Made by a program: the position numbers and the translations under genes | Shown here: one piece after another, positions 1-14,816 of the stretch | Numbering within the stretch: position 1 is the first letter of the stretch | Layout: every line of letters begins with the position of its first letter | Notes under the pieces: model-generated | The model's input: the letters and a program-made list of their open reading frames with translations, nothing else | What the model was told of the DNA's origin: nothing | Databases searched by the model: none | From: a virus | Lineage: Duplodnaviria; Heunggongvirae; Uroviricota; Caudoviricetes | IMG/VR virus record: IMGVR_UViG_2711768073_000019 | DNA: 17,278 nt | Direction: 5' to 3' (one strand)

Positions 1-549
1 ATGCAATTTAATATCCCTACGTTGCTTACACTGTTCCGTGTCATCCTTATCCCATTCTTTGTATTGGTCTTTTATCTGCCTGTCACCTGGTCGCCGTTTG
101 CCGCCGCGCTCATTTTCTGCGTCGCGGCGGTGACTGACTGGTTCGATGGTTTTCTGGCACGCCGCTGGAACCAGAGTACCCGGTTTGGTGCTTTCCTTGA
201 CCCTGTGGCAGATAAAGTTCTCGTGGCTATCGCCATGGTGCTGGTAACCGAGCATTATCACAGCTGGTGGGTGACATTACCGGCGGCAACGATGATCGCC
301 CGTGAAATTATTATTTCTGCGCTACGCGAATGGATGGCGGAGTTGGGTAAACGCAGTAGCGTGGCCGTCTCCTGGATTGGGAAAGTGAAAACCACTGCCC
401 AGATGGTGGCGTTGGCATGGCTGCTGTGGCGTCCGAACATTTGGGTTGAGTACGCCGGTATTGCACTTTTCTTTGTGGCTGCGGTACTGACTCTGTGGTC
501 AATGTTGCAATATTTGAGCGCTGCGCGTGCAGATTTGCTTGATCAGTGA
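1..549 (+). CDS. pgsA: CDP-diacylglycerol--glycerol-3-phosphate 3-phosphatidyltransferase (phosphatidylglycerophosphate synthase), 182 aa, complete
   Basis: ATG at 1, TGA at 547-549. Multi-pass membrane protein with the CDP-alcohol phosphatidyltransferase motif (DWFDGFLAR...[10 protein letters not shown]). Matches E. coli PgsA from memory. Conserved synteny with the downstream glyW-cysT-leuZ tRNAs. Confidence 0.96.
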
Positions 550-599
550 TCGTTTCGGCGTAATTTTCAGCAAACGATCAAAAGTGGTGAAAAATATCG

Positions 600-627
600 T
601 TGACTCATCGCGCCAGGTAAGTAGAAT
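600..627 (+). promoter_or_regulatory. Putative sigma70 promoter of the glyW-cysT-leuZ tRNA operon (-35 TTGACT 600-605, 16-bp spacer, -10 TAGAAT 622-627)
   Basis: Near-consensus hexamers read directly. AT-rich UP-like tract upstream (aaaagtggtgaaaaatatcg), GC-rich discriminator downstream, about 75 bp before tRNA-Gly. Not experimentally anchored. Confidence 0.5.
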
Positions 628-700
628 GCAACGCATCGAACGGCGGCACTGATTGCCAGACGATAATAAAATCAAGTGATTAACTGATTGCTTGATGAAT

Positions 701-776
<76 letters not shown>

Positions 777-830
777 GTTTAAAAGACATCGGCGTCAAGC
801 GGATGTCTGGCTGAAAGGCCTGAAGAATTT

Positions 831-904
831 GGCGCGTTAACAAAGCGGTTATGTAGCGGATTGCAAATCCGTCTAGTCCGGTTCGACTCCGGAACGCGCC
901 TCCA
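831..904 (+). tRNA. cysT: tRNA-Cys (anticodon GCA), 74 nt with encoded CCA
   Basis: GGCGCGTTAACAAAGCGGTTATGTAGCGGATTGCAAATCCG...GCGCCTCCA. Acceptor stem ggcgcgt/acgcgcc, anticodon loop ttGCAaa. Confidence 0.96.
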
Positions 905-916
905 CTTTCTTCCCGA

Positions 917-1003
917 GCCCGGATGGTGGAATCGGTAGACACAAGGGATTTAAAATCCCTCGGCGTTCGCGCTGTGCGGGTTCAAGTCCCGCTCCGGGTA
1001 CCA
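917..1003 (+). tRNA. leuZ: tRNA-Leu (anticodon UAA), 87 nt class II tRNA with long variable arm and encoded CCA
   Basis: GCCCGGATGGTGGAATCGGTAGACACAAGGGATTTAAAATCCC...GGTTCAAGTCCCGCTCCGGGTACCA. Anticodon loop ttTAAaa, long variable arm. Confidence 0.96.
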
Positions 1004-1046
1004 TGGGAAAGATAAGAATAAAATCAAAGCAATAAGCAGTGTCGTG

Positions 1047-1069
1047 AAACCACCTTCGGGTGGTTTTTT
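1047..1069 (+). terminator. Rho-independent terminator of the tRNA operon
   Basis: Hairpin aaaccacc-ttcg-ggtggttt followed by T-run (1064-1069). Confidence 0.85.
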
Positions 1070-1541
1070 CGTATTTGTATTTTGTGCAATGGCGGTAGAG
1101 TGGCGATGGTGTGGCGATATGCAGAAACAATGGTAGTGCACGTGCTGTTTAAACTCTAAGGATGAAGCAGAATTCTTCTGCAGCTCCTCCGTATTTCGCA
1201 TAGTGAACCAGGACCTCTGTTAAACAAAAATTTTTCTGGGATTTTTTCACTCGACTTCATTTTTCCTCCTGCAATCCACCAACAGGTACCTGCGCTAATC
1301 TATCTTTTTAATCTGACAACATCTTGGGAAAAGGCAAATTCGTCAGATTTACTGTTTTTCTGCTGCCTCGAATGCCGATGTCTGAAGCACTGATAAGAGT
1401 TCTATCTCTTTGATATAGATCTTTTTTTTGATGAATTGCACGACATATTATCGTTATGACACCTTCTTGTTAAAGGTATTGTACTCCTCATCTCGATTTT
1501 ATGATGTGGGCTATGATTGGTTAGTAATAGAGTGTATCGGT

Positions 1542-1823
1542 ATGCGATGTGGTTTATTAATGGCAATCTGCCTTTGTTTAGTATCTTTTAGTGGATATGC
1601 AGCAACAGGAAAGTCTGATGCTCAGATCAAAAAAGAAATAATTAAAGAATCCATTGAATCTTATCCAGGCAATTGTGCGTGTCCTTATAATCATGCAAGG
1701 AATGGTAGTAGATGTGGTGGACGCAGTGCATATAGCCGTAATGGAGGGTATGACGTGGTATGTTATGAGGGTGATGTTACCGATGAAATGATCCGGCAAT
1801 GGAAGCAGGAGAATGCTGAGTAA
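1542..1823 (+). CDS. Small secreted Cys-rich hypothetical protein (93 aa from ATG 1542; the track ORF starts upstream at 1428)
   Basis: N-terminal hydrophobic signal-peptide-like segment MRCGLLMAICLCLVSFSGYAATG. Mature part has 4 Cys (NCACPYNHARNGSRCGG...VVCYEG). Lies in a roughly 38 percent GC region just past the tRNA terminator. No recognised family; weak RBS. Confidence 0.4.
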   Translation: MRCGLLMAICLCLVSFSGYAATGKSDAQIKKEIIKESIESYPGNCACPYNHARNGSRCGGRSAYSRNGGYDVVCYEGDVTDEMIRQWKQENAE

Positions 1824-1895
1824 TCTCTTTTAACAGGTTTGTTGTGCGAGCATTATGTGCCGTTAACGGTACACTAGCTAGTGATTGTTCCAAAA

Positions 1896-1932
1896 AGAAA
1901 ACCCGCAGTTCTTACGCTGCGGGTTTGTTGTT
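1896..1932. terminator. Bidirectional intrinsic terminator hairpin
   Basis: aaacccgcag-ttcttacg-ctgcgggttt, a perfect 10-bp stem flanked by A-run on one side and T-rich tract on the other. It sits 3' of the minus-strand hok-like gene and 3' of the plus-strand small ORF. Confidence 0.7.
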
Positions 1933-2011
1933 CATGTCTGTGAGATAGGGTGCCACTTCAGCCAACCTTAGCAACCGATTGACGGGGGATTGCTCCCCCG
2001 TCGCGGTTTCC

Positions 2012-2152
2012 TTACTGCTTACACTGTAAGAACGCCGCAAACTCCGCTCCCCAGAAGCTCATCCGTATTTCACACAGCGAACCGTGTAGCATCCAGATGA
2101 TGAGGATTACCGTCACGCAGAACGTGATGGCTGTAAGCGATTTTTGCGACAT
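2012..2152 (-). CDS. Hok/Gef-family type I toxin, 46 aa (not in the supplied ORF track because it is under 60 aa)
   Basis: Manual translation of the minus strand: MSQKSLTAITFCVTVILIIWMLHGSLCEIRMSFWGAEFAAFLQCKQ. Single N-terminal TM helix followed by the Hok signature SLCEIR and an EFAAF(L) tail (compare Hok KSLCEIR...EVAAFMAYE). RBS aaaGGAGcaagcgctATG. Followed 3' by a perfect stem-loop gacggggg-attgct-cccccgtc (1981-2002), then the terminator. Confidence 0.8.
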   Translation of the reverse strand: MSQKSLTAITFCVTVILIIWMLHGSLCEIRMSFWGAEFAAFLQCKQ

Positions 2153-2342
2153 AGCGCTTGCTCCTTTGTTGGAGAGGCGCTAACCTATCACTTGCTTAAG
2201 GTAGATATGTTAGGGCCTCGGTTAAACAGAAATGTTTTCCGGGGCCTTTCCACATCCGGCCTTCGGGTATTCCTCCGACCATCAGCCGAAAGGCACCCGC
2301 GGGTAATCTATCGTTTTTTTGTTACTCCGGCAATTCTGCCTG

Positions 2343-2603
2343 TTAATTCTGAGGTAAAGGCAAACTCATCTGATTGTTTCCCCTGTGTGAAGCTGGCAGC
2401 TCATGCCACGGGATACCTTCCGAAGAGTGAACGCCGGAGGCGTGTTTTGATGTGAATTTATGGAAAGCTTCCAGTGTTGAGAAGCATACGCCGCATTCCA
2501 GGTTGTTACACTGGTAATACTTTTGCCGCACAGTGTTTGAATCGTTTTCCGGACGACTGGTGCGGATTCGGGCAGATGCGCCACAAAGCGGACAACGGAA
2601 CAT
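2343..2603 (-). CDS. ogr: Ogr/Delta-family zinc-finger late-gene transcriptional activator (P2-like), 86 aa
   Basis: MFRCPLCGASARIRTSRPENDSNTVRQKYYQCNNLECGVCF aligns with P2 Ogr MFHCPLCQHAAHARTSRY...ERYHQCQNVNCSATF, including the four Cys ligands (C4, C7, C32, C37). Strong RBS aaGGGAGGtcgctATG. The C-terminus is longer than the P2 Ogr as recalled (72 aa). Confidence 0.8.
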   Translation of the reverse strand: MFRCPLCGASARIRTSRPENDSNTVRQKYYQCNNLECGVCFSTLEAFHKFTSKHASGVHSSEGIPWHELPASHRGNNQMSLPLPQN

Positions 2604-2892
2604 AGCGACCTCCCTTAACGTGGTGCTGCCGCTATTCTAAGTTGTAATAGCTCAGACTCCAACTGACAGTTTGCGCAGCCAGAATACAATCAAACCTAGC
2701 GGTACGCTTTGTGCGAAGAGCGGAAGTTCGCAACTCCAACAACTTTGATAACCTCCGCATAAATGGAAATCGGTTGCTTACATAAGTTTATTGGCTGAGG
2801 TGCATATCGGGAAGCAAGCGGGCAGTGCCATCTTATCTGTTACAATCCCGAAATGATTGTTCAGCCCGCTTTTTCTAACAGCATGTAAACAT

Positions 2893-4032
2893 TCAGCTGC
2901 AAATTTCGTTGTTGCTGCATGTTATCTCTTCAAGTGCAGCGGCGTTATAATCAACGGAATGATCAACCTGTGATGTAGGTCTGCCAAAAAATTCAACCCC
3001 TGACATAATCATGTTGCCGATATTCTCTCGCTGTTTATCACTGAGCCTGTCCCACCACTCAGGGGATGAATATGTATTTTCGGCCTTTGTGAAGAAAAAA
3101 TACAGAAGGGTATTGAACATCCTGTTAGCTGGGATCTTAATTAGTGTCCGTATAAAACGTCTGATAATTGTTGAAGTTCTCAGCCAACTGAACACTACAT
3201 ATCCCTTACCTCCGCAGGAAAAAGCATTGAAACATACTTGTTCCGCCGACACTGTAAGATCGCTCAAATCCTGAATTTTGGTCCCATCGAAATCCCTCTC
3301 CGGTGAAAGAATTGACGAAACTACAATTGGTAAAGGCTCTGCAAAAGTGAAGATAACACTTTCAATTTCTGAAAATTGCCTGCTAAGTAGGATGCGGTCG
3401 AGGCTAGTTTTAAGATTATTTAATTCAATTATTGCTGCATTTAAGCCACTTTGGTGCTGGTCGATTAATTTCTGAATATAATACTGTTCAACTTGTAGCT
3501 TTCCTTTATCGGCATTTTTAGCAAAATCAGAAGATAGCACTCCCCCTTCTTTGGCATAAATTTCTTTAGACAATGAACGAAACATTAAGGCAAAGCACTG
3601 CTCGTCCGTGCCTGTAAATTTTTCGTTCTCTAGGCATGAAAATAAGATTCTGTCATGAACTGCACAAAATCCTGTAAAAGTGGATGCCTGATTGATACCG
3701 ATCTTCTCGGGAAGCCATTTTCCGTTGTTTCTCATCAGGCTTGCTAAGTTCATTATCACCCCCATGACGTGATTGCTGGAGTCGGCGATCGCCTTAAGGC
3801 TACTGCTCTTAGATATCGTATGCGCCTGAACGATGCGTTTATCACAATCTTCGTGCATGGATGCTGGCGCATAACATGCCTTTCTCTGCGAGAGAGACTT
3901 TGAAAATTTCAGTGCCTCGGCTTTGGATACCGGAGTTTCACGATCTCGACCAAGATGGCACTTTTTATACTTAAGTCCTGAATTACACCAGCACTTATCA
4001 TTTCTTCCTAATTTCACTTTATTGTTTCCCAC
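2893..4032 (-). CDS. Hypothetical cargo protein, 379 aa, with N-terminal SEC-C-type zinc-ribbon motif; unknown function
   Basis: Long uninterrupted minus-strand ORF in an AT-rich block between gpD and ogr. Residues 9-26 GRNDKCWCNSGLKYKKCH match the SEC-C metal-binding motif. The rest resembles no family I recognise. The annotated start is GTG without a clear SD; an alternative GTG at 4017 follows GGGAAA. Confidence 0.6.
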   Translation of the reverse strand: MGNNKVKLGRNDKCWCNSGLKYKKCHLGRDRETPVSKAEALKFSKSLSQRKACYAPASMHEDCDKRIVQAHTISKSSSLKAIADSSNHVMGVIMNLASLMRNNGKWLPEKIGINQASTFTGFCAVHDRILFSCLENEKFTGTDEQCFALMFRSLSKEIYAKEGGVLSSDFAKNADKGKLQVEQYYIQKLIDQHQSGLNAAIIELNNLKTSLDRILLSRQFSEIESVIFTFAEPLPIVVSSILSPERDFDGTKIQDLSDLTVSAEQVCFNAFSCGGKGYVVFSWLRTSTIIRRFIRTLIKIPANRMFNTLLYFFFTKAENTYSSPEWWDRLSDKQRENIGNMIMSGVEFFGRPTSQVDHSVDYNAAALEEITCSNNEICS

Positions 4033-4431
4033 GAAATTAATGTTCTATAACAAAAACACTTATCGAAAATAGGTGTAATTTATCACTCCGGCAGCTAAAA
4101 GATCATCTGCCACATGCACGATAATAAATCTTCCTTGCGTCATCATCTCCCTCTGTTCTTAAATCAGGTGTTGCCTGTGTGCGGAGGATTCGCGAAGTAC
4201 AGTAGCCGAAATGCATGATCTTACCCATCAATGGTGAGCACGCGATAATAAGTGAGTCCCTAATTGACCACTCATGGCAATACAACTTCAACCAGCATTC
4301 ATGACCACTATCCGTGGATTAACTGTTACATAAGCAACACCTGCTCTAGGCACAAAGCGGGCTGCCAGATTGGGTCTGGCACTGTGCTGTGAGTGTGTCA
4401 GTTCTGGTTTGAGTCAATACATCTAATTTGC

Positions 4432-5532
4432 TCATTCTGTTTCTGCTATCCATTCCGGGATTTTTGCTTCAAGCTCAAGCTGTGTGGTAAAGCCGCTGTT
4501 ATCAATGGTGTGCTCGGCTTTTGCAATAATCCAGTCCTGATTATCGATGTCACTTTTGAAGCCTGTCACCGTGCCATGCATTTCGGGATAGAGTTCTGCG
4601 CGTCCACGCGCCAGCGTGATGGAGAATGATGCGGCTCCGCGTTGTAGCTGCTGCCACTTTGCCGCCGCTGCACGTCTTGCTGCCTGCTCGTTCTGATAAG
4701 TCTTGCGTAACACAAACACGTTGCCTTCCGCACCTTCCATATAGTCACCTTCACGGCTGCTGCTTTTCTCCTTTTTCGGTTTGCGGCGTTTCACGCTGAC
4801 TTTTTTCTTTTTCCCGTAATTAAGATCAAGCCAGTAAGCACGTACCCCCGTATACGCTTCGCGGTCAGCAATGCGGAACTGATGGCGATCGCCACTGCTG
4901 CGCGTGATGGCGAACGATGGCAACGGCTGGCCCTGTGCGTTCACGCCACCGCCTGGCATGATGAATAACAGATTACTGCTTTTTACCGTAGTGATTGCGC
5001 CCAGCATTTCCGCCATGCGCGTAAGGAAGGACATGTCGCTTTCTTCGGTCTGGTCGGCGTGGTCGATTTCAATATCCATCAGCATTTCGCTGATTTGTGG
5101 TTTCAGACCGTACCGATGAGCGATGGCGGATACCACGCGCTCAACGGTCACATCATGCCAGGACACCTCACGTTTAACGTTAAATTCATCCCGAAAATCT
5201 GCGCTTCTGGCTGAAACAGTCAGCCTGTCCGGCGGTCCTTCGTGAGCGATTTCATCAACAATGTAAGTGCCTTTTTCTGTCAGCGGTTCTCCTTTCCAGC
5301 CAATGAGAACCGTCAGGTGCGCGCCCCGTGGCGGTAGCTGCAACTGACCATCTGCATCATCCAGCATGATGGTGAGCTGGTCCGCCTCAAATCCCCGGTT
5401 GTCGGTCAGTGACAGGCTCATCAGGCGCTCTGCCACGCCGGACAGTGTTTCCCCCTCCGCGAGAATATCAAAATCCGGCATTTTCACGGGGTCTGTGCTC
5501 TGACTGAGCAATTGCATGGTGGTATCGGTCAT
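4432..5532 (-). CDS. D: P2-like tail protein D (Phage_GPD / late control gene D family), copy 1, 366 aa
   Basis: RBS AGGGAGGgaacagATG at 5532 (track ORF 4432-5664 has 44 junk N-terminal codons running into IS2). Typical gpD motifs: SLSLTDNRGFEADQLTIMLDDADGQL, VSWHDVTVERVVSAIAHRYGLKP, K/R-rich internal linker. Ends ...EWIAETE. Confidence 0.9.
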   Translation of the reverse strand: MTDTTMQLLSQSTDPVKMPDFDILAEGETLSGVAERLMSLSLTDNRGFEADQLTIMLDDADGQLQLPPRGAHLTVLIGWKGEPLTEKGTYIVDEIAHEGPPDRLTVSARSADFRDEFNVKREVSWHDVTVERVVSAIAHRYGLKPQISEMLMDIEIDHADQTEESDMSFLTRMAEMLGAITTVKSSNLLFIMPGGGVNAQGQPLPSFAITRSSGDRHQFRIADREAYTGVRAYWLDLNYGKKKKVSVKRRKPKKEKSSSREGDYMEGAEGNVFVLRKTYQNEQAARRAAAAKWQQLQRGAASFSITLARGRAELYPEMHGTVTGFKSDIDNQDWIIAKAEHTIDNSGFTTQLELEAKIPEWIAETE

Positions 5533-5648
5533 CTGTTCCCTCCCTGTGCGGCATGGTCGCATGTGCGTGCATAGGGGGTTACTGCTTTTTGTTGTCGCCG
5601 TGGCGGGAGAACGGCGCAGGGGTGAGATTACGCGNCCTGGATTTGCCC

Positions 5649-6554
5649 CTATATTTCCAGACACCTGTTATCACTTACCCCATCACTGGCCCACTGCCGC
5701 AGATATTCCCGTGGCGAGCGATAACCCAGCGCACTATGCGGATGCCATTCGTTATAATGCTCGAACGCCTCTGCAAGGTTCTTTGCTGCCGTTAACCCGT
5801 CTGGTTTGGGCATGATACTTATGTAGTCACGCTTTATCGTTTTCACGAAGCTCTCTGCTATTCCGTTACTCTCCGGACTCCGCACTGCCGTGTTCTTCGG
5901 TTCAAGTCCCAACATCCTGGCGAACTGACGTGTTTCATTCGCCCGGTAGCATGAACCATTATCCGTCAGCCACTCCACTGGAGACGCCGGAAGCTCGCTG
6001 CCAAAGCGGCGTTCCACTGCTCCCAGCATGACGTCCTGTACTGTTTCACTGTCGAAGCCACCCGTTGTGACCGCCCAGTGCAGTGCCTCACGGTCACAGC
6101 AGTCCAGCGCGAACGTGACCCGCAGTTTTTCTCCGTTATCACAGCGGAACTCAAACCCGTCAGAGCACCATCGCTGATTACTTTCTTTCACAGCCACTCT
6201 GCCGGTATGTGCCCGTTTCGATGGCGGTACAGCGGGTTTTCGCTCAAGCAACAGCGCATTCTGGCGCATGATCCGGTAAACACGTTTGGCATTGATCGCA
6301 GGCATACCATCAAGTTCTGTTTGTCTGCGAAGCAGCGCCCATACCCGACGATAACCATATGTGGGTAGCTCTCCGATAACATGGTGTATACGGCGAAGCA
6401 CATCCGTATCATCCGTGTGACGGCTGCGGCGGCCGTCCTTCCAGTCATCGGCTCGTCTGAGAATGACGTGCAACTGCGCACGCGACACCCGGAGACAACG
6501 GCTGACGAAGCTTACTCCCCATCCCCGGGCAATAAGGGCGCGTGCGCTATCCAC
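5649..6554 (-). CDS. insD: IS2 transposase OrfB (InsD, DDE integrase domain), 301 aa; expressed as OrfAB fusion by -1 frameshift
   Basis: [34 protein letters not shown]... is IS3-family OrfB with an rve integrase core. Overlaps insC in the -1 frame. Confidence 0.93.
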
Positions 6555-6877
6555 TTTTTTGCTCGCCCATATTCAACGGCTTCTTTAAGGAGTTCATTTT
6601 CCATCGTTTTTTTGCCGAGCAGACGCTGGAGTTCTTTAATCTGCTTCATGGCGGCAGCAAGTTCAGAGGCAGGAACGACCTGTTCTCCGGCAGCCACAGC
6701 AGTAAGACTTCCCTCCTGGTATTGCTTACGCCAGAGAAATAGCTGGCTGGCTGCCACACCATGTTGCCGGGCAACAAGGGAGACCGTCATTCCCGGTTCA
6801 AAGCTCTGCTGAACGATAGCGATCTTTTCCTGTGTAGTACGCCGTCTGCGTTTCTCCGGCCCTAAGACATCAATCAT
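6512..6877 (-). CDS. insC: IS2 transposase OrfA (InsC), 121 aa
   Basis: [40 protein letters not shown]... is identical in character to IS2 InsC. Start set at ATG 6877 (GGAGAACAGATG), not the upstream track start. Confidence 0.93.
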
Positions 6878-6968
6878 CTGTTCTCCAATGACTAGTCTAA
6901 AAACTAGTATTAAGACTATCACTTATTTAAGTGATATTGGTTGTCTGGAGATTCAGGGGGCCAGTCTA

Positions 6969-8019
6969 CGACCTAAATCCTGAGCTCATCCCCGATATTA
7001 TTTCGGCTATTAAAAAACTATCAACGCCACCTTACAAAATAGAGATACAGGGTGGGGAGCCTCTCTTGCGGTTTGATTTAATTCAGAGCATCTATGATCA
7101 ATGTGCTGAAACGCTGGGAAGAACCAATTTTGAGATGGTGGTGGCATCAAGTCTGTCTGTCTTGAATGAGGATATGATTGAATGGTCGAGAGACCGGAAC
7201 ATAACGTTCTCTGTGTCGCTTGATGGTGAGGAAGTTGTTCACAACAGTAATCGAATTCTTGGTCGTGGGCTTGCGTATAGTAGAACAGTGTCAGGGGTAG
7301 AGGCTATCAAACACTCTTTAGGTGCTGGCCGCGTTGCAACGGTTACTACAGTTACTAAAGAGCTTATCAGACGTCCTGAATCGATTGTTCAGGCTCACTT
7401 GTCTCTTGGTCTCAAGGACATGTTTATCCGACCTGTTAGTCCCTATGGGTTTGCACAAAAAGCTTCTTTCACCTTTTCTATGGACGAATACTTCAGCTTC
7501 TATGCCTCGTTGATAGATGAAATCCTTAAGATTAATAATGAAGGGATAAGGGTTGTGGAACATTCGGCCTCCATTCATCTGAAAAGGATCTTCAATCCCG
7601 GTTTTAGTGGTTATGCGGATTTAAAGTCTCCAAGTGGAGTCGTGCTTAACAGTATTCTTTTCAATTATGACGGTCGAGTATATGGTAGCGATGAGAGCCG
7701 TATGTTGCAGAAGGTGAATCCTGAAACGGAGTTCAGTGCGGGTGAAGTTAAGACGCTATCATTTTCTGATAGTCCTTACTATAACGCAGTATTGAGTTCA
7801 TCGTTCAATTTTGCTCTGCCAGGTTGTGATACATGTGCATATCAACCATTTTGTGGTTCAGATCCATGCCAGAACATAAGTGTACAGGGTGAGCCTGTCG
7901 GTGATAGGAGTCGTTCAACGTTTTGTCAATATCACAAGGGGATGTTCAGGTATCTGATGAACTGCATCTCAGAGGGTGGTTCGAAGGCTGAGATGCTAAA
8001 AGGATGGGCATATGTCTGA
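6969..8019 (+). pseudogene. 5'-truncated radical SAM / SPASM-domain enzyme (HxsB-like maturase), interrupted by IS2
   Basis: Reading frame continues out of the IS2 end. Retained sequence begins just before the SAM-binding GGEPLL motif but lacks the upstream CxxxCxxC triad, so roughly 60-100 N-terminal residues are missing. C-terminal Cys-rich auxiliary-cluster motif ALPGCDTCAYQPFCGSDPC. Low GC. The B versus C assignment is tentative. Confidence 0.65.
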
Positions 8020-9124
8020 GGTTATCAGGAACGATATCTTTCATTTTGCTTCTACAGAGAACGTGCCCACGGGGTTCTATCGGTTATGCAAACAAAAACC
8101 AGTGAACCCTTTATTCTTTTTGCCCAATTTGCTAGTAGTTGCTGAAGGCAATAATGATGCCATTCCACCATGCTTTGATTTCTCTGTTATTAGCACTGAA
8201 TTATTTGAGTCAATTGAAGATGGAGATATTGGGATAATCAACAATGGCAATATGATACGCGTTATTCTGTCACGCAAAGCCAATCATAATACTGTCTTAG
8301 TTACGGAACGCTGCAATAACTTGTGTCTGTTTTGTTCGCAGCCACCAAAGAAAATAAATGATGACTGGCTACTTACCCAATCAGCTCTTGCTATAGCTTC
8401 ATTTGGCTTGAACGGAGTTGTTGGGGTCAGCGGTGGTGAACCTTTGCTATATGGGGATGACTTCCTTCACTTCATTGATTTTATCATCGAGAATTCACCA
8501 GATACTGCTTTACATGTTTTAACAAACGGACGCAAATTTGCTGATATCAACTTTACACAGGAAATGGCAAAGCGAAGCAAAAAGATCAAAATCACCTTTG
8601 GTATCCCGCTCTACTCATCAAGACCACTTGTGCATGATCATCTGGTAGGGAGTGATGGCGCATTTAATGAAACGGTTAAAGGGTTAATCAATGCAGGAAA
8701 CTTGGGGATTAATATCGAACTTAGAGTTATTCCTACACTGGCTAACTATACCGAATTGGATGATATTGTAGAATTCGCTGGCCGTGTGTTCTCCAACATC
8801 AATCAGATTTCCCTTATGGGGTTGGAGCCTATCGGTTGGGCACGAAAAAACTGGTCCACCATCTTCATTGATCACAGTAGTTATAGTGAGAAAATAATCT
8901 CTGCCATAGACGCTGCATACAGGTCAGGCATACCTCTGACAATTTTTAATTATCCTTTGTGTTATCTTCCTGAAAGGGCTAGGGAGCTTGCTGTTCAGTC
9001 GATCTCTGATTGGAAAAATTACTATCCAAAAGAATGTGATGAATGTACTCAGAAGCCTTCCTGTGCTGGCTATTTCAGTTCCTCAAAAGGCCGTTTTCAT
9101 CAATCACCGAGACCAATTTTATGA
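8012..9124 (+). CDS. Radical SAM enzyme (HxsC-like maturase), 370 aa
   Basis: CxxxCxxC motif ERCNNLCLFCSQP at about residues 99-111, GGEPLLY SAM-binding motif, C-terminal Cys cluster ECDECTQKPSC. Start overlaps the upstream stop (ATGtcTGA), indicating translational coupling. Low GC. Confidence 0.75.
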   Translation: MSEVIRNDIFHFASTENVPTGFYRLCKQKPVNPLFFLPNLLVVAEGNNDAIPPCFDFSVISTELFESIEDGDIGIINNGNMIRVILSRKANHNTVLVTERCNNLCLFCSQPPKKINDDWLLTQSALAIASFGLNGVVGVSGGEPLLYGDDFLHFIDFIIENSPDTALHVLTNGRKFADINFTQEMAKRSKKIKITFGIPLYSSRPLVHDHLVGSDGAFNETVKGLINAGNLGINIELRVIPTLANYTELDDIVEFAGRVFSNINQISLMGLEPIGWARKNWSTIFIDHSSYSEKIISAIDAAYRSGIPLTIFNYPLCYLPERARELAVQSISDWKNYYPKECDECTQKPSCAGYFSSSKGRFHQSPRPIL

Positions 9125-9756
9125 AAAAGTTTAATTTTGCTGCTCTACTTCCGGGATTTTTGGCTCTCAACAATTCTGTATGGGCAAGCGATTCATCTAC
9201 AGGAGCGAGTGATTTACCTGGTATGACTCTTAATGAGCATGATTTAGTGATAGCTCCACTTAACACGGAAGTCCCATTTTATATCGCAGGGCATCGAAGC
9301 CATAGCTCTCATAGGAGCCATAGCTCTCATAGATCCTCATCAGGTGGTGGATACTATGGTGGAAGTACCCCCTATTATCCAAAAACATACAGCTCACCAA
9401 GTTCATCTGGTTCTTCAAGTTCAGGTGCAAGTTCCTCATCGTCCTCTTCCTCGGTGCGTGCACTTCGTTCTAACGATAATAATAGAACCACTAACACGAG
9501 TTCTGTTGGAACTTCAGAGGTTAACCGTACGAGTAATGGGCTTGCTTCTGATGCAGAGAAACGTAAGCGATTGATTATGCGAGTTCAGTTCGCATTGCTG
9601 GACAGGGGATTTTATAACGGAAATATTGACGGCATAATGGGGCCATCCACAAGGCTGTCTGTGAAAAATTACCGCATTGCGAATGGATTACCGATTCCTG
9701 CAACTGAAACACTCGACACTCAATTGTTAAATTCTTTGAATATATTAGCTCGCTAA
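9121..9756 (+). CDS. hxsA: His-Xaa-Ser repeat precursor-like protein with signal peptide and C-terminal peptidoglycan-binding-like domain (HxsA-like), 211 aa
   Basis: ATGA overlap with the preceding rSAM gene. Signal peptide MKKFNFAALLPGFLALNNSVWA; (H-R-S)(H-S-S)(H-R-S)(H-S-S)(H-R-S) repeats; Ser/Gly low-complexity linker; C-terminal LLDRGFYNGNIDGIMGPSTRLSVKNYRIANGLP resembles a PG_binding_1 fold. Matches my recollection of the TIGRFAM His-Xaa-Ser system description. Confidence 0.65.
   Translation: MKKFNFAALLPGFLALNNSVWASDSSTGASDLPGMTLNEHDLVIAPLNTEVPFYIAGHRSHSSHRSHSSHRSSSGGGYYGGSTPYYPKTYSSPSSSGSSSSGASSSSSSSSVRALRSNDNNRTTNTSSVGTSEVNRTSNGLASDAEKRKRLIMRVQFALLDRGFYNGNIDGIMGPSTRLSVKNYRIANGLPIPATETLDTQLLNSLNILAR
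9298..9333 (+). repeat. 2 x 18-bp near-perfect tandem direct repeat inside hxsA encoding the HSSHRS repeats
   Basis: agccatagctctcatagg (9298-9315) and agccatagctctcataga (9316-9333), 17/18 identical. Confidence 0.85.
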
Positions 9757-9920
9757 ATCTCAGTGAGGTATAAATAAAAAGCAATAAATTATATTAGTCG
9801 CGCGTCCATTATTAGTGGGTAAGATCAAGGACCGTCTGCTCTGTGTTAGGGGCAGATGGTCAGATAAGACTGTGCCGTTTAGCCCGCTAGTACGTGTCTG
9901 GACTAATACATTTAAGAGTC

Positions 9921-11024
9921 TCATTCTGCTATCCATTCCGGGATTTTTGCCTCAAGCTCAAGCTGCGTGGTAAAGCCGCTGTTATCAATGGTGTGCTCGG
10001 CTTTCGCAATAATCCAGTCCTGATTATCAATCTCGCTTTTAAAGCCTGTTACCGTGCCATGCATTTCGGGGTAGAGTTCTGCGCGTCCACGTGCCAGTGT
10101 GATGGAGAACGCTGCGGCTCCGCGTTGTAGCTGCTGCCACTTTGCCGCCGCTGCGCGTCTTGCTGCCTGCTCGTTCTGATAAGTCTTGCGTAACACAAAC
10201 ACATTGCCTTCCGCGCCTTCCATATAATCACCTTCACGGCTGCTGCTTTTCTCCTTTTTGGGTTTTGGCGGTTTACGGCGTTTCACGCTGACTTTTTTCT
10301 TTTTCCCGTAATTAAGATCAAGCCAGTAGGCGCGTACCCCCGTATACGCCTCGCGGTCAGCAATACGGAACTGATGGCGATCGCCGCTGCTGCGTGTAAT
10401 GGCGAACGAGGGCAACGGCTGGCCCTGTGCGTTCACGCCACCACCTGGCATGATGAATAACAGATTGCCGCTTTTTACTGTGGTGATTGCGCCCAGCATT
10501 TCCGCCATGCGCGTAAGGAAGGACATGTCGCTTTCTTCGGTCTGGTCGGCGTGGTCGATTTCGATATCCATCAGCATTTCGCTGATTTGCGGTTTCAGAC
10601 CGTACCGATGAGCGATGGCGGATACCACACGCTCAACGGTCACATCATGCCAGGACACCTCACGTTTAACGTTAAATTCATCCCGAAAATCTGCGCTTCT
10701 GGCTGAAACAGTCAGCCTGTCCGGCGGTCCTTCGTGTGCAATTTCATCAACAATGTAAGTGCCTTTTTCTGTCAGCGGTTCTCCTTTCCAGCCAATGAGA
10801 ACCGTCAGGTGCGCGCCCCGTGGCGGTAGCTGCAACTGACCATCTGCATCATCCAGCATGATGGTGAGCTGGTCCGCCTCAAATCCCCGGTTGTCGGTCA
10901 GTGACAGGCTCATCAGGCGCTCTGCCACGCCTGACAGCGTTTTACCCTCCGCGAGAATATCAAAATCCGGCATTTTCACGGGGTCTGTGCCCTGACTGAG
11001 CAATTGCATGGTGGTGTCGGTCAT
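9921..11024 (-). CDS. D: P2-like tail protein D, copy 2 (diverged allele), 367 aa
   Basis: Same family and RBS as copy 1 but distinct sequence: SQGTDP vs SQSTDP, AEGKTLSG vs AEGETLSG, KRRKPPKPKKEK vs KRRKPKKEK, ends ...EWIAE without the TE. The 3' flank differs completely from copy 1. Confidence 0.9.
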   Translation of the reverse strand: MTDTTMQLLSQGTDPVKMPDFDILAEGKTLSGVAERLMSLSLTDNRGFEADQLTIMLDDADGQLQLPPRGAHLTVLIGWKGEPLTEKGTYIVDEIAHEGPPDRLTVSARSADFRDEFNVKREVSWHDVTVERVVSAIAHRYGLKPQISEMLMDIEIDHADQTEESDMSFLTRMAEMLGAITTVKSGNLLFIMPGGGVNAQGQPLPSFAITRSSGDRHQFRIADREAYTGVRAYWLDLNYGKKKKVSVKRRKPPKPKKEKSSSREGDYMEGAEGNVFVLRKTYQNEQAARRAAAAKWQQLQRGAAAFSITLARGRAELYPEMHGTVTGFKSEIDNQDWIIAKAEHTIDNSGFTTQLELEAKIPEWIAE

Positions 11025-11181
11025 CTGTTCCCTCCCTGTGCGGCATGGTCGCATGTGCGTGCGGAGGGGGTTACTGCTTTTTGTTGTCGCCGGGTCGGGA
11101 GAACGGCGCAGGGGTGAGATTACGCGCGTGGTGGGTGATGATTGTTGCCGAATCATTTAACGGATACAAGGGGCTGAAGCT

Positions 11182-12348
11182 ATGAGTGAAACTCGTTTTC
11201 ATGGTGCCCGTGTTACGGAAAATACCGACCTGGTAACAGCGATTAACGATGTTGATTCCAGCGTTATCGGTATCGTGGCAACGGCGGATGATGCGGACGC
11301 GAAGCTGTTCCCGCTGAACAAGCCCACACTGCTGACCCGCGTCAATGACGTGCTGGGAAAATGCGGGACAACGGGGACGCTTTATCGTGCGCTTAAGGCC
11401 ATTGCAGACCAGGTGAGCACAAAGGTGATCGTCGTTCGCGTGGCTGAACACAAAGAAGAAGACGGAAAGACGCAGGATCAACTGGTTATCGGTGGTTCTG
11501 AATCTGACGGCAGCTATACGGGGATGTATGCGCTGCTTGTTGCAGAGCAGGATGAAAGCATCGGATACCGTCCGCGTATTCTGGCCGCGCCGGAGCTGGA
11601 CACGGAGGCGGTAACAAAATCCCTGTGCGTGATTGCGGGTAAACTGCGCGCGTTTGTGTATGCCTCATGTCACGGCTGTAACACGATGGCTGAGGCGATT
11701 ACCTACCGCCAGAAATTCAACGAACGTGAGGTGATGCTCTTATGGCCGGACTTCATCGCCTACAACCCGAAAAGTGGCAAAAACGAAACGTTCCCCGCGC
11801 CTGCCTATGCGTGTGGCCTTCGTGCGTACATTGACCATGAGCAGGGATGGCACAAATCACTGTCCAACGTTCCGGTTAAAAATGTGCTGGGGATGTCGAG
11901 GCATGTGTTCTGGTCGTTGCAGGCCGAAGACAGCGATGCCAACAGCCTCAACAACAAAGAAATCACGACCATTATTCGTCGCAACGGGTTCCGCTTCTGG
12001 GGCAACCGCACACCGGAAACGAACGCCTACATCTTTGAGGTGTATACCCGAACCGCACAGGTGCTGGCTGATTCAATTGCAGAAGCGCAGTTTGAAACCA
12101 TCGACAGTCCACTGACGCCTGCGAACGTGAAGGATGTTATCAGTGCCATCAGGGCAAAACTGGATTCACTGGTTACTGCCGGGAAACTGATTGGCGCGGA
12201 GTGCTGGTATGACGTGGTGGATAACAGCACCACGGATTTACGTCAGGGACGTGTGCGTATTCGCTACAAATATACGCCCGTTCCGCCACTGGAAGACATG
12301 GAGCTTTACCAGACGTTTACTGATGAATACTTTGAACCCGCATTTGCG
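11182..12348 (+). CDS. FI: P2-like tail sheath protein FI, 3' end cut by an ambiguous base (last 5 codons missing)
   Basis: MSETRFHGARV...WPDFIAYNP...GFRFWGNRT...YKYTPVPPLEDMELYQTFTDEYFEPAFA shows conserved sheath motifs as in P2 gpFI. Frame is broken at n 12349, where the sequence jumps into the antisense interior of gpD. Confidence 0.88.
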
Positions 12349-12349
12349 N

Positions 12350-12998
12350 GGCGATCGCCACTGCTGCGCGTGATGGCGAACGATGGCAACGGCTGGCCCT
12401 GTGCGTTCACGCCACCGCCTGGCATGATGAATAACAGATTACTGCTTTTTACCGTAGTGATTGCGCCCAGCATTTCCGCCATGCGCGTAAGGAAGGACAT
12501 GTCGCTTTCTTCGGTCTGGTCGGCGTGGTCGATTTCAATATCCATCAGCATTTCGCTGATTTGTGGTTTCAGACCGTACCGATGAGCGATGGCGGATACC
12601 ACACGCTCAACGGTCACATCATGCCAGGACACCTCACGTTTAACGTTAAATTCATCCCGAAAATCTGCGCTTCTGGCTGAAACAGTCAGCCTGTCCGGCG
12701 GTCCTTCGTGAGCGATTTCATCAACAATGTAAGTGCCTTTTTCTGTCAGCGGTTCTCCTTTCCAGCCAATGAGAACCGTCAGGTGCGCGCCCCGTGGCGG
12801 TAGCTGCAACTGACCATCTGCATCATCCAGCATGATGGTGAGCTGGTCCGCCTCAAATCCCCGGTTGTCGGTCAGTGACAGGCTCATCAGGCGCTCTGCC
12901 ACGCCGGACAGTGTTTCCCCCTCCGCGAGAATATCAAAATCCGGCATTTTCACGGGGTCTGTGCTCTGACTGAGCAATTGCATGGTGGTATCGGTCAT
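12350..12998 (-). pseudogene. gpD fragment (N-terminal about 216 codons, copy-1-type allele)
   Basis: Identical in character to 4885-5532. Bounded by n at 12349. Confidence 0.7.
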
Positions 12999-13155
12999 CT
13001 GTTCCCTCCCTGTGCGGCATGGTCGCATGTGCGTGCATAGGGGGTTACTGCTTTTTGTTGTCGCCGTGGCGGGAGAACGGCGCAGGGGTGAGATTACGCG
13101 CGTGGTGGGTGATGATTGTTGCCGAATCATTTAACGGATACAAGGGGCTGAAGCT

Positions 13156-13897
13156 ATGAGTGAAACTCGTTTTCATGGTGCCCGTGTTACGGAAAGTACC
13201 GACCTGGTAACAGCGATTAATGATGTTGATTCCAGTGTTATCGGTATCGTGGCAACGGCGGATGATGCGGACGCGGAGCTGTTCCCGCTGAACAAGCCCA
13301 CACTGCTGACCCGCGTCAATGACGTGCTGGGAAAATGCGGGACTACGGGGACGCTTTATCGTGCGCTTAAGGCTATTGCAGACCAGGTGAGCACAAAAGT
13401 GATCGTCGTTCGCGTGGCTGAACACAAAGAAGAAGGCGGTAAGACGCAGGATCAACTGGTTATCGGTGGTTCTGAATCTGACGGCAGCTATACGGGGATG
13501 TATGCGCTGCTTGTTGCAGAGCAGGATGAAAGCATCGGATACCGTCCGCGTATTCTGGCCGCGCCGGAGCTGGACACGGAGGCGGTGACAAAATCCCTGT
13601 GCGTGATTGCGGGTAAACTGCGCGCGTTTGTGTATGCCTCATGTCATGACTGTAACACGATGGCTGAGGCAATTACCTACCGCCAGAAATTCAACGAACG
13701 TGAGGTGATGCTCTTATGGCCGGACTTCATCGCCTACAACCCGAAAAGTGGCAAAAACGAAACGTTCCCCGCGCCTGCCTATGCGTGCGGCCTTCGTGCG
13801 TACATTGACCATGAGCAGGGCTGGCACAAATCGCTGTCCAACGTTCCTGTTAAAAATGTGCTGGGGATGTCCAGGCATGTTTTCTGGTCGTTGCAGG
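13156..13897 (+). pseudogene. FI fragment (N-terminal about 247 codons, variant allele: ESTDLV, ADAELF, EEGGKTQ, SCHDCNT)
   Basis: Runs into the N-run at 13898-13908. Confidence 0.7.
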
Positions 13898-13908
13898 NNN
13901 NNNNNNNN
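13898..13908. other. Assembly gap (11 N)
   Basis: Run of n. Sequence after the gap restarts at the gpD start region (tcggtcatctgttccctccc). Confidence 0.99.
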
Positions 13909-14779: not shown

Positions 14780-14816
14780 NNNNNNNNNNNNNNNNNNNNN
14801 NNNNNNNNNNNNNNNN
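14780..14816. other. Assembly gap (37 N)
   Basis: Run of n. Sequence resumes inside FI at about codon 77. Confidence 0.99.

Follow-up and report, generated by a model that had tools for sequence, protein, structure and literature searches.

A P2-like prophage cargo operon of the HXS anti-phage system, split by IS2 and probably inactivated

Introduction

Which genes make up the low-GC cluster at positions 6969-9756 of the 17,278-nt stretch of DNA analysed here (the window), why do they lie against a phage gene D, and can they still work? The initial annotation had seen in them a His-Xaa-Ser repeat peptide cluster truncated by an IS2 element, and had called this kind of system uncharacterised. 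The latter statement has been overtaken by publication: in E. coli, hxsDBCA acts as a broad anti-phage system (Li et al., Nat Commun 2026, PMC13128918), whose function was reported in a January 2026 preprint and then in the March 2026 Nature Communications paper (PMC13128918), including mass-spectrometry and phage-challenge experiments of the type that the annotation had proposed. The HXS operon described here is therefore already known in kind, its function and outline mechanism having been published in 2026. Note that TIGRFAM has provided models of the hxs gene families for more than ten years, and that NCBI's pipeline already names the genes.

In the published system, studied experimentally with the operon of E. 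coli strain MEM, the radical-SAM/SPASM proteins HxsB and HxsC, together with the small HxsD, mature HxsA; HxsD binds HxsC, and HxsC-HxsD was modelled as the core modifying complex (PMC13128918). The N-terminus of HxsA is processed, and a +8 Da modification is found on its last HxS repeat, SHRSS (PMC13128918). The mature protein is a periplasmic, peptidoglycan-anchored effector that delays (slows or blocks) the entry of phage DNA (PMC13128918). Defence needs all four genes and the HxsB cysteines C98/C101, and either the deletion of hxsB or the C98A/C101A change abolishes both HxsA cleavage and defence (PMC13128918). HXS was described as typically chromosomal, with 77% of the operons outside geNomad-predicted prophages (PMC13128918).

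Here we report that the region 6969-9756 very probably represents the 3' three-quarters of an hxsDBCA defence operon that belongs to the cargo of a P2-like prophage, is split by IS2 and is probably non-functional.

Results

The three genes were assigned with the curated NCBIfam/TIGRFAM models, using their equivalog cut-offs, and HxsB', HxsC and HxsA all scored above them. The first gene, hxsB' (6969..8019, + strand), is a 3' fragment comprising codons 113-462. It matched TIGR03978 with 441.3 bits (cut-off 370) over profile positions 112-466 of 466 only, and an intact HxsB orthologue scored 558.9 bits against the same model. The residues that remain are identical to those of WP_021524735. HxsB' retains IQGGEPLL, which contains the GGEP motif, and the C-terminal CDTCAYQPFCGSDPC, with the SPASM-type auxiliary-cluster cysteines C399/C402/C408/C413. 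It is without residues 1-112, hence without the radical-SAM CX3CX2C motif (C94/C98/C101), which bears out the earlier claim that this Cys triad was lost to IS2. HxsB is also weakly but significantly similar to radical-SAM/SPASM peptide maturase families.

The second gene, hxsC (8012..9124, + strand), is intact and encodes 370 aa that are 100% identical to WP_000005564, with a full-length match to TIGR03977 (397.5 bits; cut-off 267.9), the radical-SAM cysteines C101/C105/C108 (CNNLCLFC) and the auxiliary cysteines C342/C345/C351. The third, hxsA (9121..9756, + strand; TIGR03979, 161.1 bits, cut-off 121.65), is likewise intact, with 211 aa from the PGAP start MKKFNF, and differs by one residue from the ETEC1730 allele. 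HxsA has a signal peptide (residues 1-22), five HxS repeats (58-72, the last being SHRSS) and a Ser-rich linker, and at its C-terminus a peptidoglycan-binding domain, whose match to PG_binding_1 is borderline (22.0 bits, just below the Pfam gathering cut-off of 23). Thus the initial reading of this region was correct in its coordinates, its gene content and every motif that it quoted, and the HMM search turned its HxsA/B/C assignment into three equivalog matches.

In intact loci the genes run hxsD-hxsB-hxsC-hxsA; the window shows B'-C-A in the same order, with overlapping stop and start codons: hxsB' and hxsC share 8 nt (ATGTCTGA), and hxsC and hxsA share 4 nt (ATGA). The GC content is 0.41-0.44 in the hxs genes vs 0.53-0.56 in the phage flanks. 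As to other collections, PHROG families matched HxsC and the HxsB C-terminus, and the PADLOC models (2023) gave only weak, viperin-like radical-SAM matches to the Hxs proteins, consistent with the description of HXS after that release. An Rfam run on the window returned three tRNAs and nothing else.

The sequence preceding hxsB' is a complete IS2 (5638..6968, - strand), identified by reading of the sequence and by its ORFs, which has the exact length of 1331 bp. Its overlapping genes insC (6512-6922) and insD (5649-6554) encode 136 and 301 aa, it is bounded by the terminal inverted repeats TGGATTTGCCCC... and ...GGGGGCCAGTCTA, and it is 95.6% identical to a copy whose PGAP name is 'IS3-like element IS2 family transposase'. 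Within one contig, and at single-base resolution, the end of the element meets hxsB codon 113; counted along the intact gene, the junction follows nt 338. A GTG-initiated ORF (6931-8019) joins 13 IS2-derived codons in frame with HxsB'.

Could this junction be an assembly chimera, so that the strain would have an intact and functional HXS operon? The assembly is plainly poor, redundant contigs being strung together through Ns. However, the break, which lies in a single contig, coincides with the last base of the IS2 inverted repeat and falls well inside a unique gene, whereas chimeras induced by repeats join inside the repeat and do not make a new junction between an IS end and a unique gene. 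Moreover, several closed genomes have other IS insertions in hxs genes (IS2, ISVsa5, IS3-family and IS600), which makes an IS event plausible. We consider a chimera highly improbable. The identical IS2/hxsB junction occurs in 0 of 5426 complete E. coli genomes, which indicates a strain-specific event.

The right flank of IS2 is CGACC, the expected 5-bp target duplication, and the left flank comprises just CC before the contig ends. This CC equals the end of CGACC, an agreement that a 2-nt flank would give by chance 1 time in 16, so a simple IS2 insertion with target duplication is suggested rather than proven. A duplication read across the N at 5635 (CGNCC vs CGACC) was also considered and rejected: its CG is part of the contig before the N, and the single Ns are plain spacers.

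What lies on the other side of IS2 depends on how the window was put together. It holds six contigs, with N runs at 5635, 12349, 13898-13908, 14780-14816 and 15780. The single-N spacer at 5635 (5635..5635) joins a contig of a leuZ/pgsA prophage (1-5634) to the contig with IS2 and hxs (5636-12348). Positions 1-5634 are 99.8% identical to the leuZ prophage of O103 RM8385, and positions 6967-12348 are 99.5% identical to the ihfA prophage of O26 11368. The single Ns at 12349 and 15780 likewise divide unrelated contig ends. The segment 12350-13897 repeats the end of the first segment and, like the reference prophage, runs on into FI; it is thus FI, and not IS2, that truly follows the first segment. 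These sequence comparisons show the window to be pieced together from N-separated contigs that are in part redundant and come from two real prophages; the adjacency of IS2 and the first gene D copy would thus be a scaffold artefact. We infer that IS2 came to stand beside the region upstream of the other prophage's gene D through contig ordering; gene order across the N positions of the window is not to be trusted.

The alternative is that the order is real, IS2-IS2 recombination or an IS2-mediated deletion or inversion having fused the region upstream of the leuZ gene D to the middle of hxsB, with the loss of hxsD and the hxsB 5' end. In support of this, the sequence to the left of IS2 does not belong to hxsB, and neither hxsD (TIGR03976, LLNDYxLRE motif) nor the hxsB N-terminus gave a tblastn match in the 17-kb window. 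Against it, the join passes through an N, and the other single Ns demonstrably part unrelated contig ends; the continuation of the first segment into FI contradicts it; and the CC before IS2 suits a target duplication in hxsB, whereas the sequence upstream of gene D continues with CGTGG instead. A real rearrangement is therefore improbable, and we favour the ordering artefact.

This bears on the missing hxsD. The initial annotation had placed an hxsD-like partner beyond the IS. In intact orthologous loci hxsD does lie upstream of hxsB (TIGR03976, 91.2 bits, cut-off 50), but beyond IS2 the window has the one-base N spacer and then a contig from a different prophage.

The requirements established for the published operon (every gene, and HxsB C98/C101) lead us to infer that the window's copy is non-functional; HXS is probably inactive here. 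It has also to be considered that hxsC and hxsA, which are intact and identical or nearly so to alleles of closed genomes, are partly active, being expressed by transcription that reads out of IS2 and provided with HxsD from across the insertion. This would fit the proposal that HxsC-HxsD, the modelled core complex (PMC13128918), installs the modification, and the GTG-initiated ORF could provide an IS2-fused HxsB'. However, the loss of HxsA cleavage and defence after hxsB deletion or C98A/C101A (PMC13128918) speaks against such activity, as does a promoter-pattern scan of 6800-10000, in which no promoter signal stood out (8 sites vs 7.2 expected by chance). Promoter and terminator scans alike gave counts no higher than chance. 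Residual activity thus seems very unlikely, and inactivation by IS2 is the reading that we retain.

Finally, we compared the surroundings of the cluster with related prophages. Downstream of hxsA, and convergent with it across a 164-bp spacer, the ihfA prophage has its P2-type late control gene D (9921..11024, - strand; identified as an ORF), which bounds the cargo slot on the right; at the equivalent place in complete genomes, its PGAP name is 'phage late control D family protein' or 'VgrG/Pvc8 family'. Of the two borders of the hxs slot, the window contains only the one formed by D. The equivalent slot of the leuZ prophage has as its left border an ogr/Delta-like zinc-finger gene (2343..2603, - strand; PRK09678, E = 1.6e-11, and annotated by PGAP in the 99.8%-identical locus). 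This slot holds a gene for a 379-aa SEC-C-motif ('YecA family') protein (2893..4032, - strand; SEC-C, E = 2e-8, and annotation), followed by that prophage's own gene D, copy 1 (4432..5532, - strand; ORF, annotation and the 99.8%-identical reference locus). The SEC-C protein had no PADLOC, PHROG or PDB match beyond its 20-aa motif. The locus comparison thus upholds the earlier proposal that the cluster is phage cargo in the position that the SEC-C gene holds in the other prophage. The several gpD copies of that annotation were right in so far as two real prophages each have a gene D; in part, the copies come from redundant contigs and are an assembly artefact.

Of 5426 complete E. coli genomes, ~152 (~3%) have PGAP-named hxs genes, and 46 of these ~152 have a contiguous ogr-hxsDBCA-D arrangement in a P2-like prophage. 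Carriage by prophages is thus not general: the P2-like slot holds only ~30% of the E. coli hxs loci, and integrase/relaxase islands hold the rest, every inspected E. coli locus being in one or the other. In the island-borne clades, a TIGR04141/DUF6119 gene comes after hxsA. An identical HxsC is present inside a P2-like prophage in IMG/VR viral contigs of 35-36 kb. Among 50,697 deposited phage genomes, annotated hxsC was found only in Leptospira phage LE1 and in no isolated P2-like coliphage, so that the evidence for prophage carriage comes from bacterial genomes and from IMG/VR contigs. The D-ogr slot itself is empty (40 bp) in ST131, and in related prophages it contains Thoeris ThsA/ThsB (strain H3), a PIN protein, DUF3800 or SEC-C. 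Its occupants with no PADLOC match are SEC-C/'YecA family', PIN-domain, DUF3800 and DUF2971 proteins.

Discussion

Our results are best explained by an hxsDBCA operon that is cargo in the variable slot between the ogr gene and gene D of a P2-like prophage, which adjoins ihfA in related E. coli. An intact operon in this slot would provide a prophage-borne exclusion function. IS2 would then have inserted after nt 338 of hxsB, splitting off the 112 N-terminal residues with the cysteines that bind [4Fe-4S]/SAM. In the real genome, hxsD and the 5' part of hxsB most likely still lie across IS2, on a contig that the scaffold did not bring into the window. The locus would offer a clean natural case in which an IS element inactivates a defence operon that a prophage carries in its cargo slot.

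A wider, tentative proposal is that the D-ogr interval of this prophage lineage, found at leuZ, ihfA, flk and serS, may be a distinct defence hotspot uncatalogued by name, in which the SEC-C, PIN, DUF3800 and DUF2971 cargos could be new anti-phage genes. Its corollary would be that E. coli HXS is carried wholly by mobile elements (P2-like prophages for ~30%, integrase/relaxase islands for the rest) and acts as a superinfection-exclusion module in a prophage. We regard this as possible, with the chances somewhat against it. If true, a system described as an intrinsic chromosomal defence would be entirely borne by mobile elements in E. coli. The uncharacterised single-gene cargos of the slot are reasonable candidates for defence screens.

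The slot resembles the known P2 hotspots, such as the old/tin site that gpA and gpQ flank (Rousset et al. 2022, PMC9122126), in being a fixed site between conserved phage genes. Also shared are unrelated, low-GC defence cargos in their own orientation, exchanged among close prophages (PMC9122126; 10.64898/2026.02.27.708500), and the occurrence of both empty and filled versions. Further, minor P2-like hotspots, some labelled 'late gene', are described in a 2026 preprint (10.64898/2026.02.27.708500); a text search for 'ogr' and 'gpD' in PMC9122126 and in this preprint found no mention of either. The present slot differs in its position between late gene D and ogr, and the prophage lineage of the window differs from P2 in the inversion of its FI-U tail block.

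With the radical-SAM/SPASM maturases of RiPPs, such as PapB and the anaerobic sulfatase maturase, HxsB shares the radical-SAM core and the C-terminal auxiliary-cluster Cys motif, but it scores far below the cut-offs of those families. The substrates are also different: HxsA has ~210 aa, is secreted and stays in the cell envelope, whereas theirs is a small exported peptide.

The closest likeness is to the published HXS itself (PMC13128918). The four families (TIGR03976, TIGR03977, TIGR03978 and TIGR03979) and the gene order match, when judged together with intact relatives. So do the lengths of HxsB and HxsC and the positions of the mutated cysteines (HxsB C98/C101 and C399/C402; HxsC C105/C108 and C342/C345), as well as the 22-residue HxsA signal peptide, the five HxS repeats with the final SHRSS and the peptidoglycan-binding C-terminus. 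The reported peptide of m/z 714.5 (5+) fitted HxsA residues 48-78 of none of four alleles, and its mass does not fit these residues of the window's HxsA. Family membership and shared numbering suggest that the window's allele may be the same as the tested one. It differs from the published operon in being without hxsD and the first 112 hxsB codons, owing to IS2, and in its location: the window's copy occupies a slot of a P2-like prophage, whereas a chromosomal location is what the paper emphasises.

The truncated operon encodes HxsB, HxsC and HxsA

Positions 6969-9756 of the window hold three reading frames that run in the same direction, the stop of each overlapping the start of the next: a 3' fragment of hxsB (6969-8019, +), hxsC (8012-9124, +) and hxsA (9121-9756, +). 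The overlaps, read from the sequence, are ATGTCTGA (8012-8019, +) and ATGA (9121-9124, +). The GC content of these genes is 0.41-0.44, compared to 0.53-0.56 in the phage DNA flanking both sides. The proteins were placed with the equivalog-level NCBIfam models and their curated cut-offs. HxsB scored 441 bits against TIGR03978 (cut-off 370), covering only positions 112-466 of the 466-position profile; HxsC scored 397.5 bits against TIGR03977 (cut-off 267.9) over its full length, and HxsA 161 bits against TIGR03979 (cut-off 121.65), matching almost the entire profile (positions 4-189 of 190). Since all three proteins are above their cut-offs, the HxsA/B/C assignment made in the initial annotation stands. 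From Pfam came no more than a generic match to Radical_SAM and a borderline one to PG_binding_1. The motifs named in that annotation were all present: GGEP and CDTCAYQPFCGSDPC in the HxsB fragment, CNNLCLFC in HxsC, and in HxsA five His-Xaa-Ser repeats (residues 58-72), followed by a linker rich in Ser and a C-terminus that resembles peptidoglycan-binding domains.

At about residues 56-89 (window 9286-9387) HxsA carries AGHRSHSSHRSHSSHRSSSGGGYYGGSTPYYPKT. Among four compared E. coli alleles, three agree throughout this stretch, and the fourth departs from them at its first position alone (I or V before AGHRS). This stretch is kept despite DNA divergence down to 75%, and the variable parts are the Ser-rich linker and the region preceding the PG-binding domain.

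IS2 removes the start of hxsB

A complete IS2 of exactly 1331 bp (5638-6968, -), with its terminal repeats and the insC and insD frames, directly abuts hxsB. In comparison with the intact orthologous locus of ETEC1730, the junction lies after nucleotide 338 of hxsB (...GGTTA/CGACCTAAATCC). HxsB residues 1-112 are missing, and with them C94, C98 and C101 of the radical-SAM CX3CX2C motif, as had been proposed for the Cys triad of the first radical SAM gene. The remaining 350 HxsB residues and the whole of HxsC are identical to the ETEC1730 orthologues, and HxsA has a single substitution. hxsD and the N-terminus of hxsB were not found anywhere in the window. A simple IS2 insertion into hxsB would give a 5-bp duplication, CGACC, and the IS2-bearing contig starts with CC, its final two bases; this match, expected by chance 1 time in 16, hints that, in the real genome, hxsD and the start of hxsB may lie across IS2. 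The IS2/hxsB junction was present in none of 5426 complete E. coli genomes and is therefore private to the source strain.

IS elements have independently inserted into the prophage-borne hxs operon in several closed E. coli genomes (L002 14073-15404; hits H5, H9 and H75): IS2 at the hxsC end in TD225-C4, ISVsa5 in hxsC in B1S11, an IS3-family element in hxsC in 13KWH46, and IS600 near the operon in 7_12_30A. This operon appears to have been inactivated repeatedly.

The window joins contigs from two prophages

The window is of E. coli origin. It starts with pgsA and a tRNA-Gly/Cys/Leu cluster, and has N characters at 5635, 12349, 13898-13908, 14780-14816 and 15780. BLAST against the reference loci revealed that positions 1-5634 (pgsA-tRNAs-hok-ogr-SEC-C gene-gene D) are 99.8% identical to the prophage adjoining tRNA-Leu (leuZ) in O103 RM8385, and that 5636-12348 consists of IS2 followed by 5.4 kb (hxsB fragment-hxsC-hxsA-gene D-FI) 99.5% identical to a different prophage, adjoining ihfA in O26:H11 11368. 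Positions 12350-13897 repeat the last 750 bp of the first segment (4884-5634) and then extend into FI, and the three final segments consist of parts of FI and FII that overlap. The single Ns part contig ends that are unrelated in the reference genomes. Hence the "gpD copies" come down to two real prophages plus redundant contigs, and the place at 5635 where IS2 adjoins the region upstream of gene D is most likely a scaffold join. Neither the gene order across the Ns nor the apparent three to five gene D/FI copies should be taken as real.

Two small genes separate tRNA-Leu from ogr: a Cys-rich ORF with a hydrophobic N-terminus (1428-1823, +; in PGAP a 93-aa hypothetical protein, 1542-1823) and a Hok/Gef toxin gene (2012-2152, -). 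At every integration site seen, prophages of this P2-like lineage end with the hok-ogr pair. About 160 bp separates gene D from the tail sheath gene FI, and the two are divergent (window 9921-12348; also reference loci L003 and L004); thus, relative to P2, in which the classical order is FI...U D ogr, this lineage has the FI-FII-E-E'-T-U block inverted. The PGAP annotation of many genomes has gene D in two pieces, an 801-nt "VgrG/Pvc8 family" CDS and a partial hypothetical.

The interval between ogr and gene D carries exchangeable cargo

In the leuZ prophage of the window, the interval between ogr (2343-2603) and gene D (4432-5532) holds a gene for a 379-aa protein (2893-4032, -) with an N-terminal SEC-C metal-binding motif, named "YecA family protein" by PGAP. 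Outside this 20-aa motif, searches of Pfam, PADLOC, PHROGs and PDB sequences found nothing for the protein; its gene is a candidate for an as yet uncharacterised defence function. The content of the same interval varies among sister P2-like prophages, which are integrated at leuZ, flk, ihfA and serS. It is empty (40 bp) in an ST131 prophage (L011 2142-2183), and holds Thoeris ThsA/ThsB in strain H3 (PADLOC 673 and 234 bits; L008 2554-4469) and, in other genomes, a PIN protein (L009 2225-3295), a DUF3800 protein (phrog_12991; L010 2372-3541) or, in a spread sample of genomes, DUF2971, ParA-like or alpha/beta-hydrolase genes. Because the interval is empty or differently filled in sister prophages, and holds the SEC-C gene in the leuZ prophage, the proposed analogy between the hxs and SEC-C positions is correct: both are the same interval, a genuine swap site. 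The text of the P2-hotspot papers searched mentions neither ogr nor gpD; their figures or other literature may cover this slot.

PGAP annotates hxsA-D in about 152-155 of the 5426 complete E. coli genomes, and the loci form three DNA clades. The clade that includes the window comprises 46 genomes at 99% identity or more, and the position of its hxs genes is constant: an ogr/Delta-like gene on one side and late gene D on the other, in a P2-like prophage or remnant adjoining ihfA. This position, in an interval that swaps its content, bears out the suggestion that the genes are phage cargo. An identical HxsC was found in four IMG/VR viral contigs in the same ogr-D prophage setting, two of them 35-36 kb. 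HxsC and the C-terminus of HxsB also have matches among PHROG families. A search of 50,697 deposited phage genomes found hxsC only in Leptospira phage LE1; thus, this collection has no isolated P2-like coliphage with HXS on record.

The remaining two clades, at about 91% and about 75% identity, lie in islands with integrases, recombinases and relaxases, so that the inspected loci were on mobile elements and not in the core chromosome. This distribution agrees numerically with the published 77% of hxs operons outside predicted prophages (PMC13128918). In most loci of the island-borne clades, a TIGR04141/DUF6119 gene directly follows hxsA (L006 11447-13054; L007 12520-14124; L005 12510-14322), and hxsDBCA together with this gene is covered to at least 80% in about 60 genomes. 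The prophage-borne clade lacks the gene, which had no PADLOC match and may be a fifth HXS partner or a co-travelling defence gene. The two island-borne clades share only about 75% DNA identity with one another, and have this "sporadically distributed" gene in common.

Comparison with the published HXS system

The initial annotation regarded Hxs function as uncharacterised. This no longer holds, since an anti-phage function was published by Li et al. in 2026 (bioRxiv, January; Nat Commun, March; PMC13128918), including the mass spectrometry of HxsA and the phage-sensitivity experiments that the annotation had proposed. Of 113 coliphages, 110 were inhibited by a cloned E. coli hxsD-hxsB-hxsC-hxsA operon; adsorption was not blocked, infection was not abortive, and all four genes were needed. 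T7 escape mutations mapped to the ejectosome proteins gp15 and gp16, and a Dam/DpnI entry assay and electron microscopy revealed delayed genome entry. N-terminally cleaved HxsA was found in the periplasm only with HxsB, HxsC and HxsD present, with a +8 Da modification on the SHRSS motif of its last repeat; HxsC bound HxsD, and periplasmic HxsA bound DNA. The HxsB C98A/C101A and HxsC C105A/C108A mutations abolished both cleavage and defence (PMC13128918).

The window proteins coincide with the published ones in cysteine numbers, signal-peptide length, repeat number and the SHRSS motif. Given the published requirement for C98/C101 and this shared numbering, we infer that the window copy, having lost HxsB C94, C98 and C101, would be unable to mature HxsA and is inactive, in line with the earlier expectation. 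The finding adds no new kind of system. Set against HXS, the window operon is incomplete: it has neither hxsD nor the radical-SAM cluster of HxsB, each a defining feature that the system cannot do without. With three of the four components above the equivalog cut-offs, it is a member of the system at the family level.
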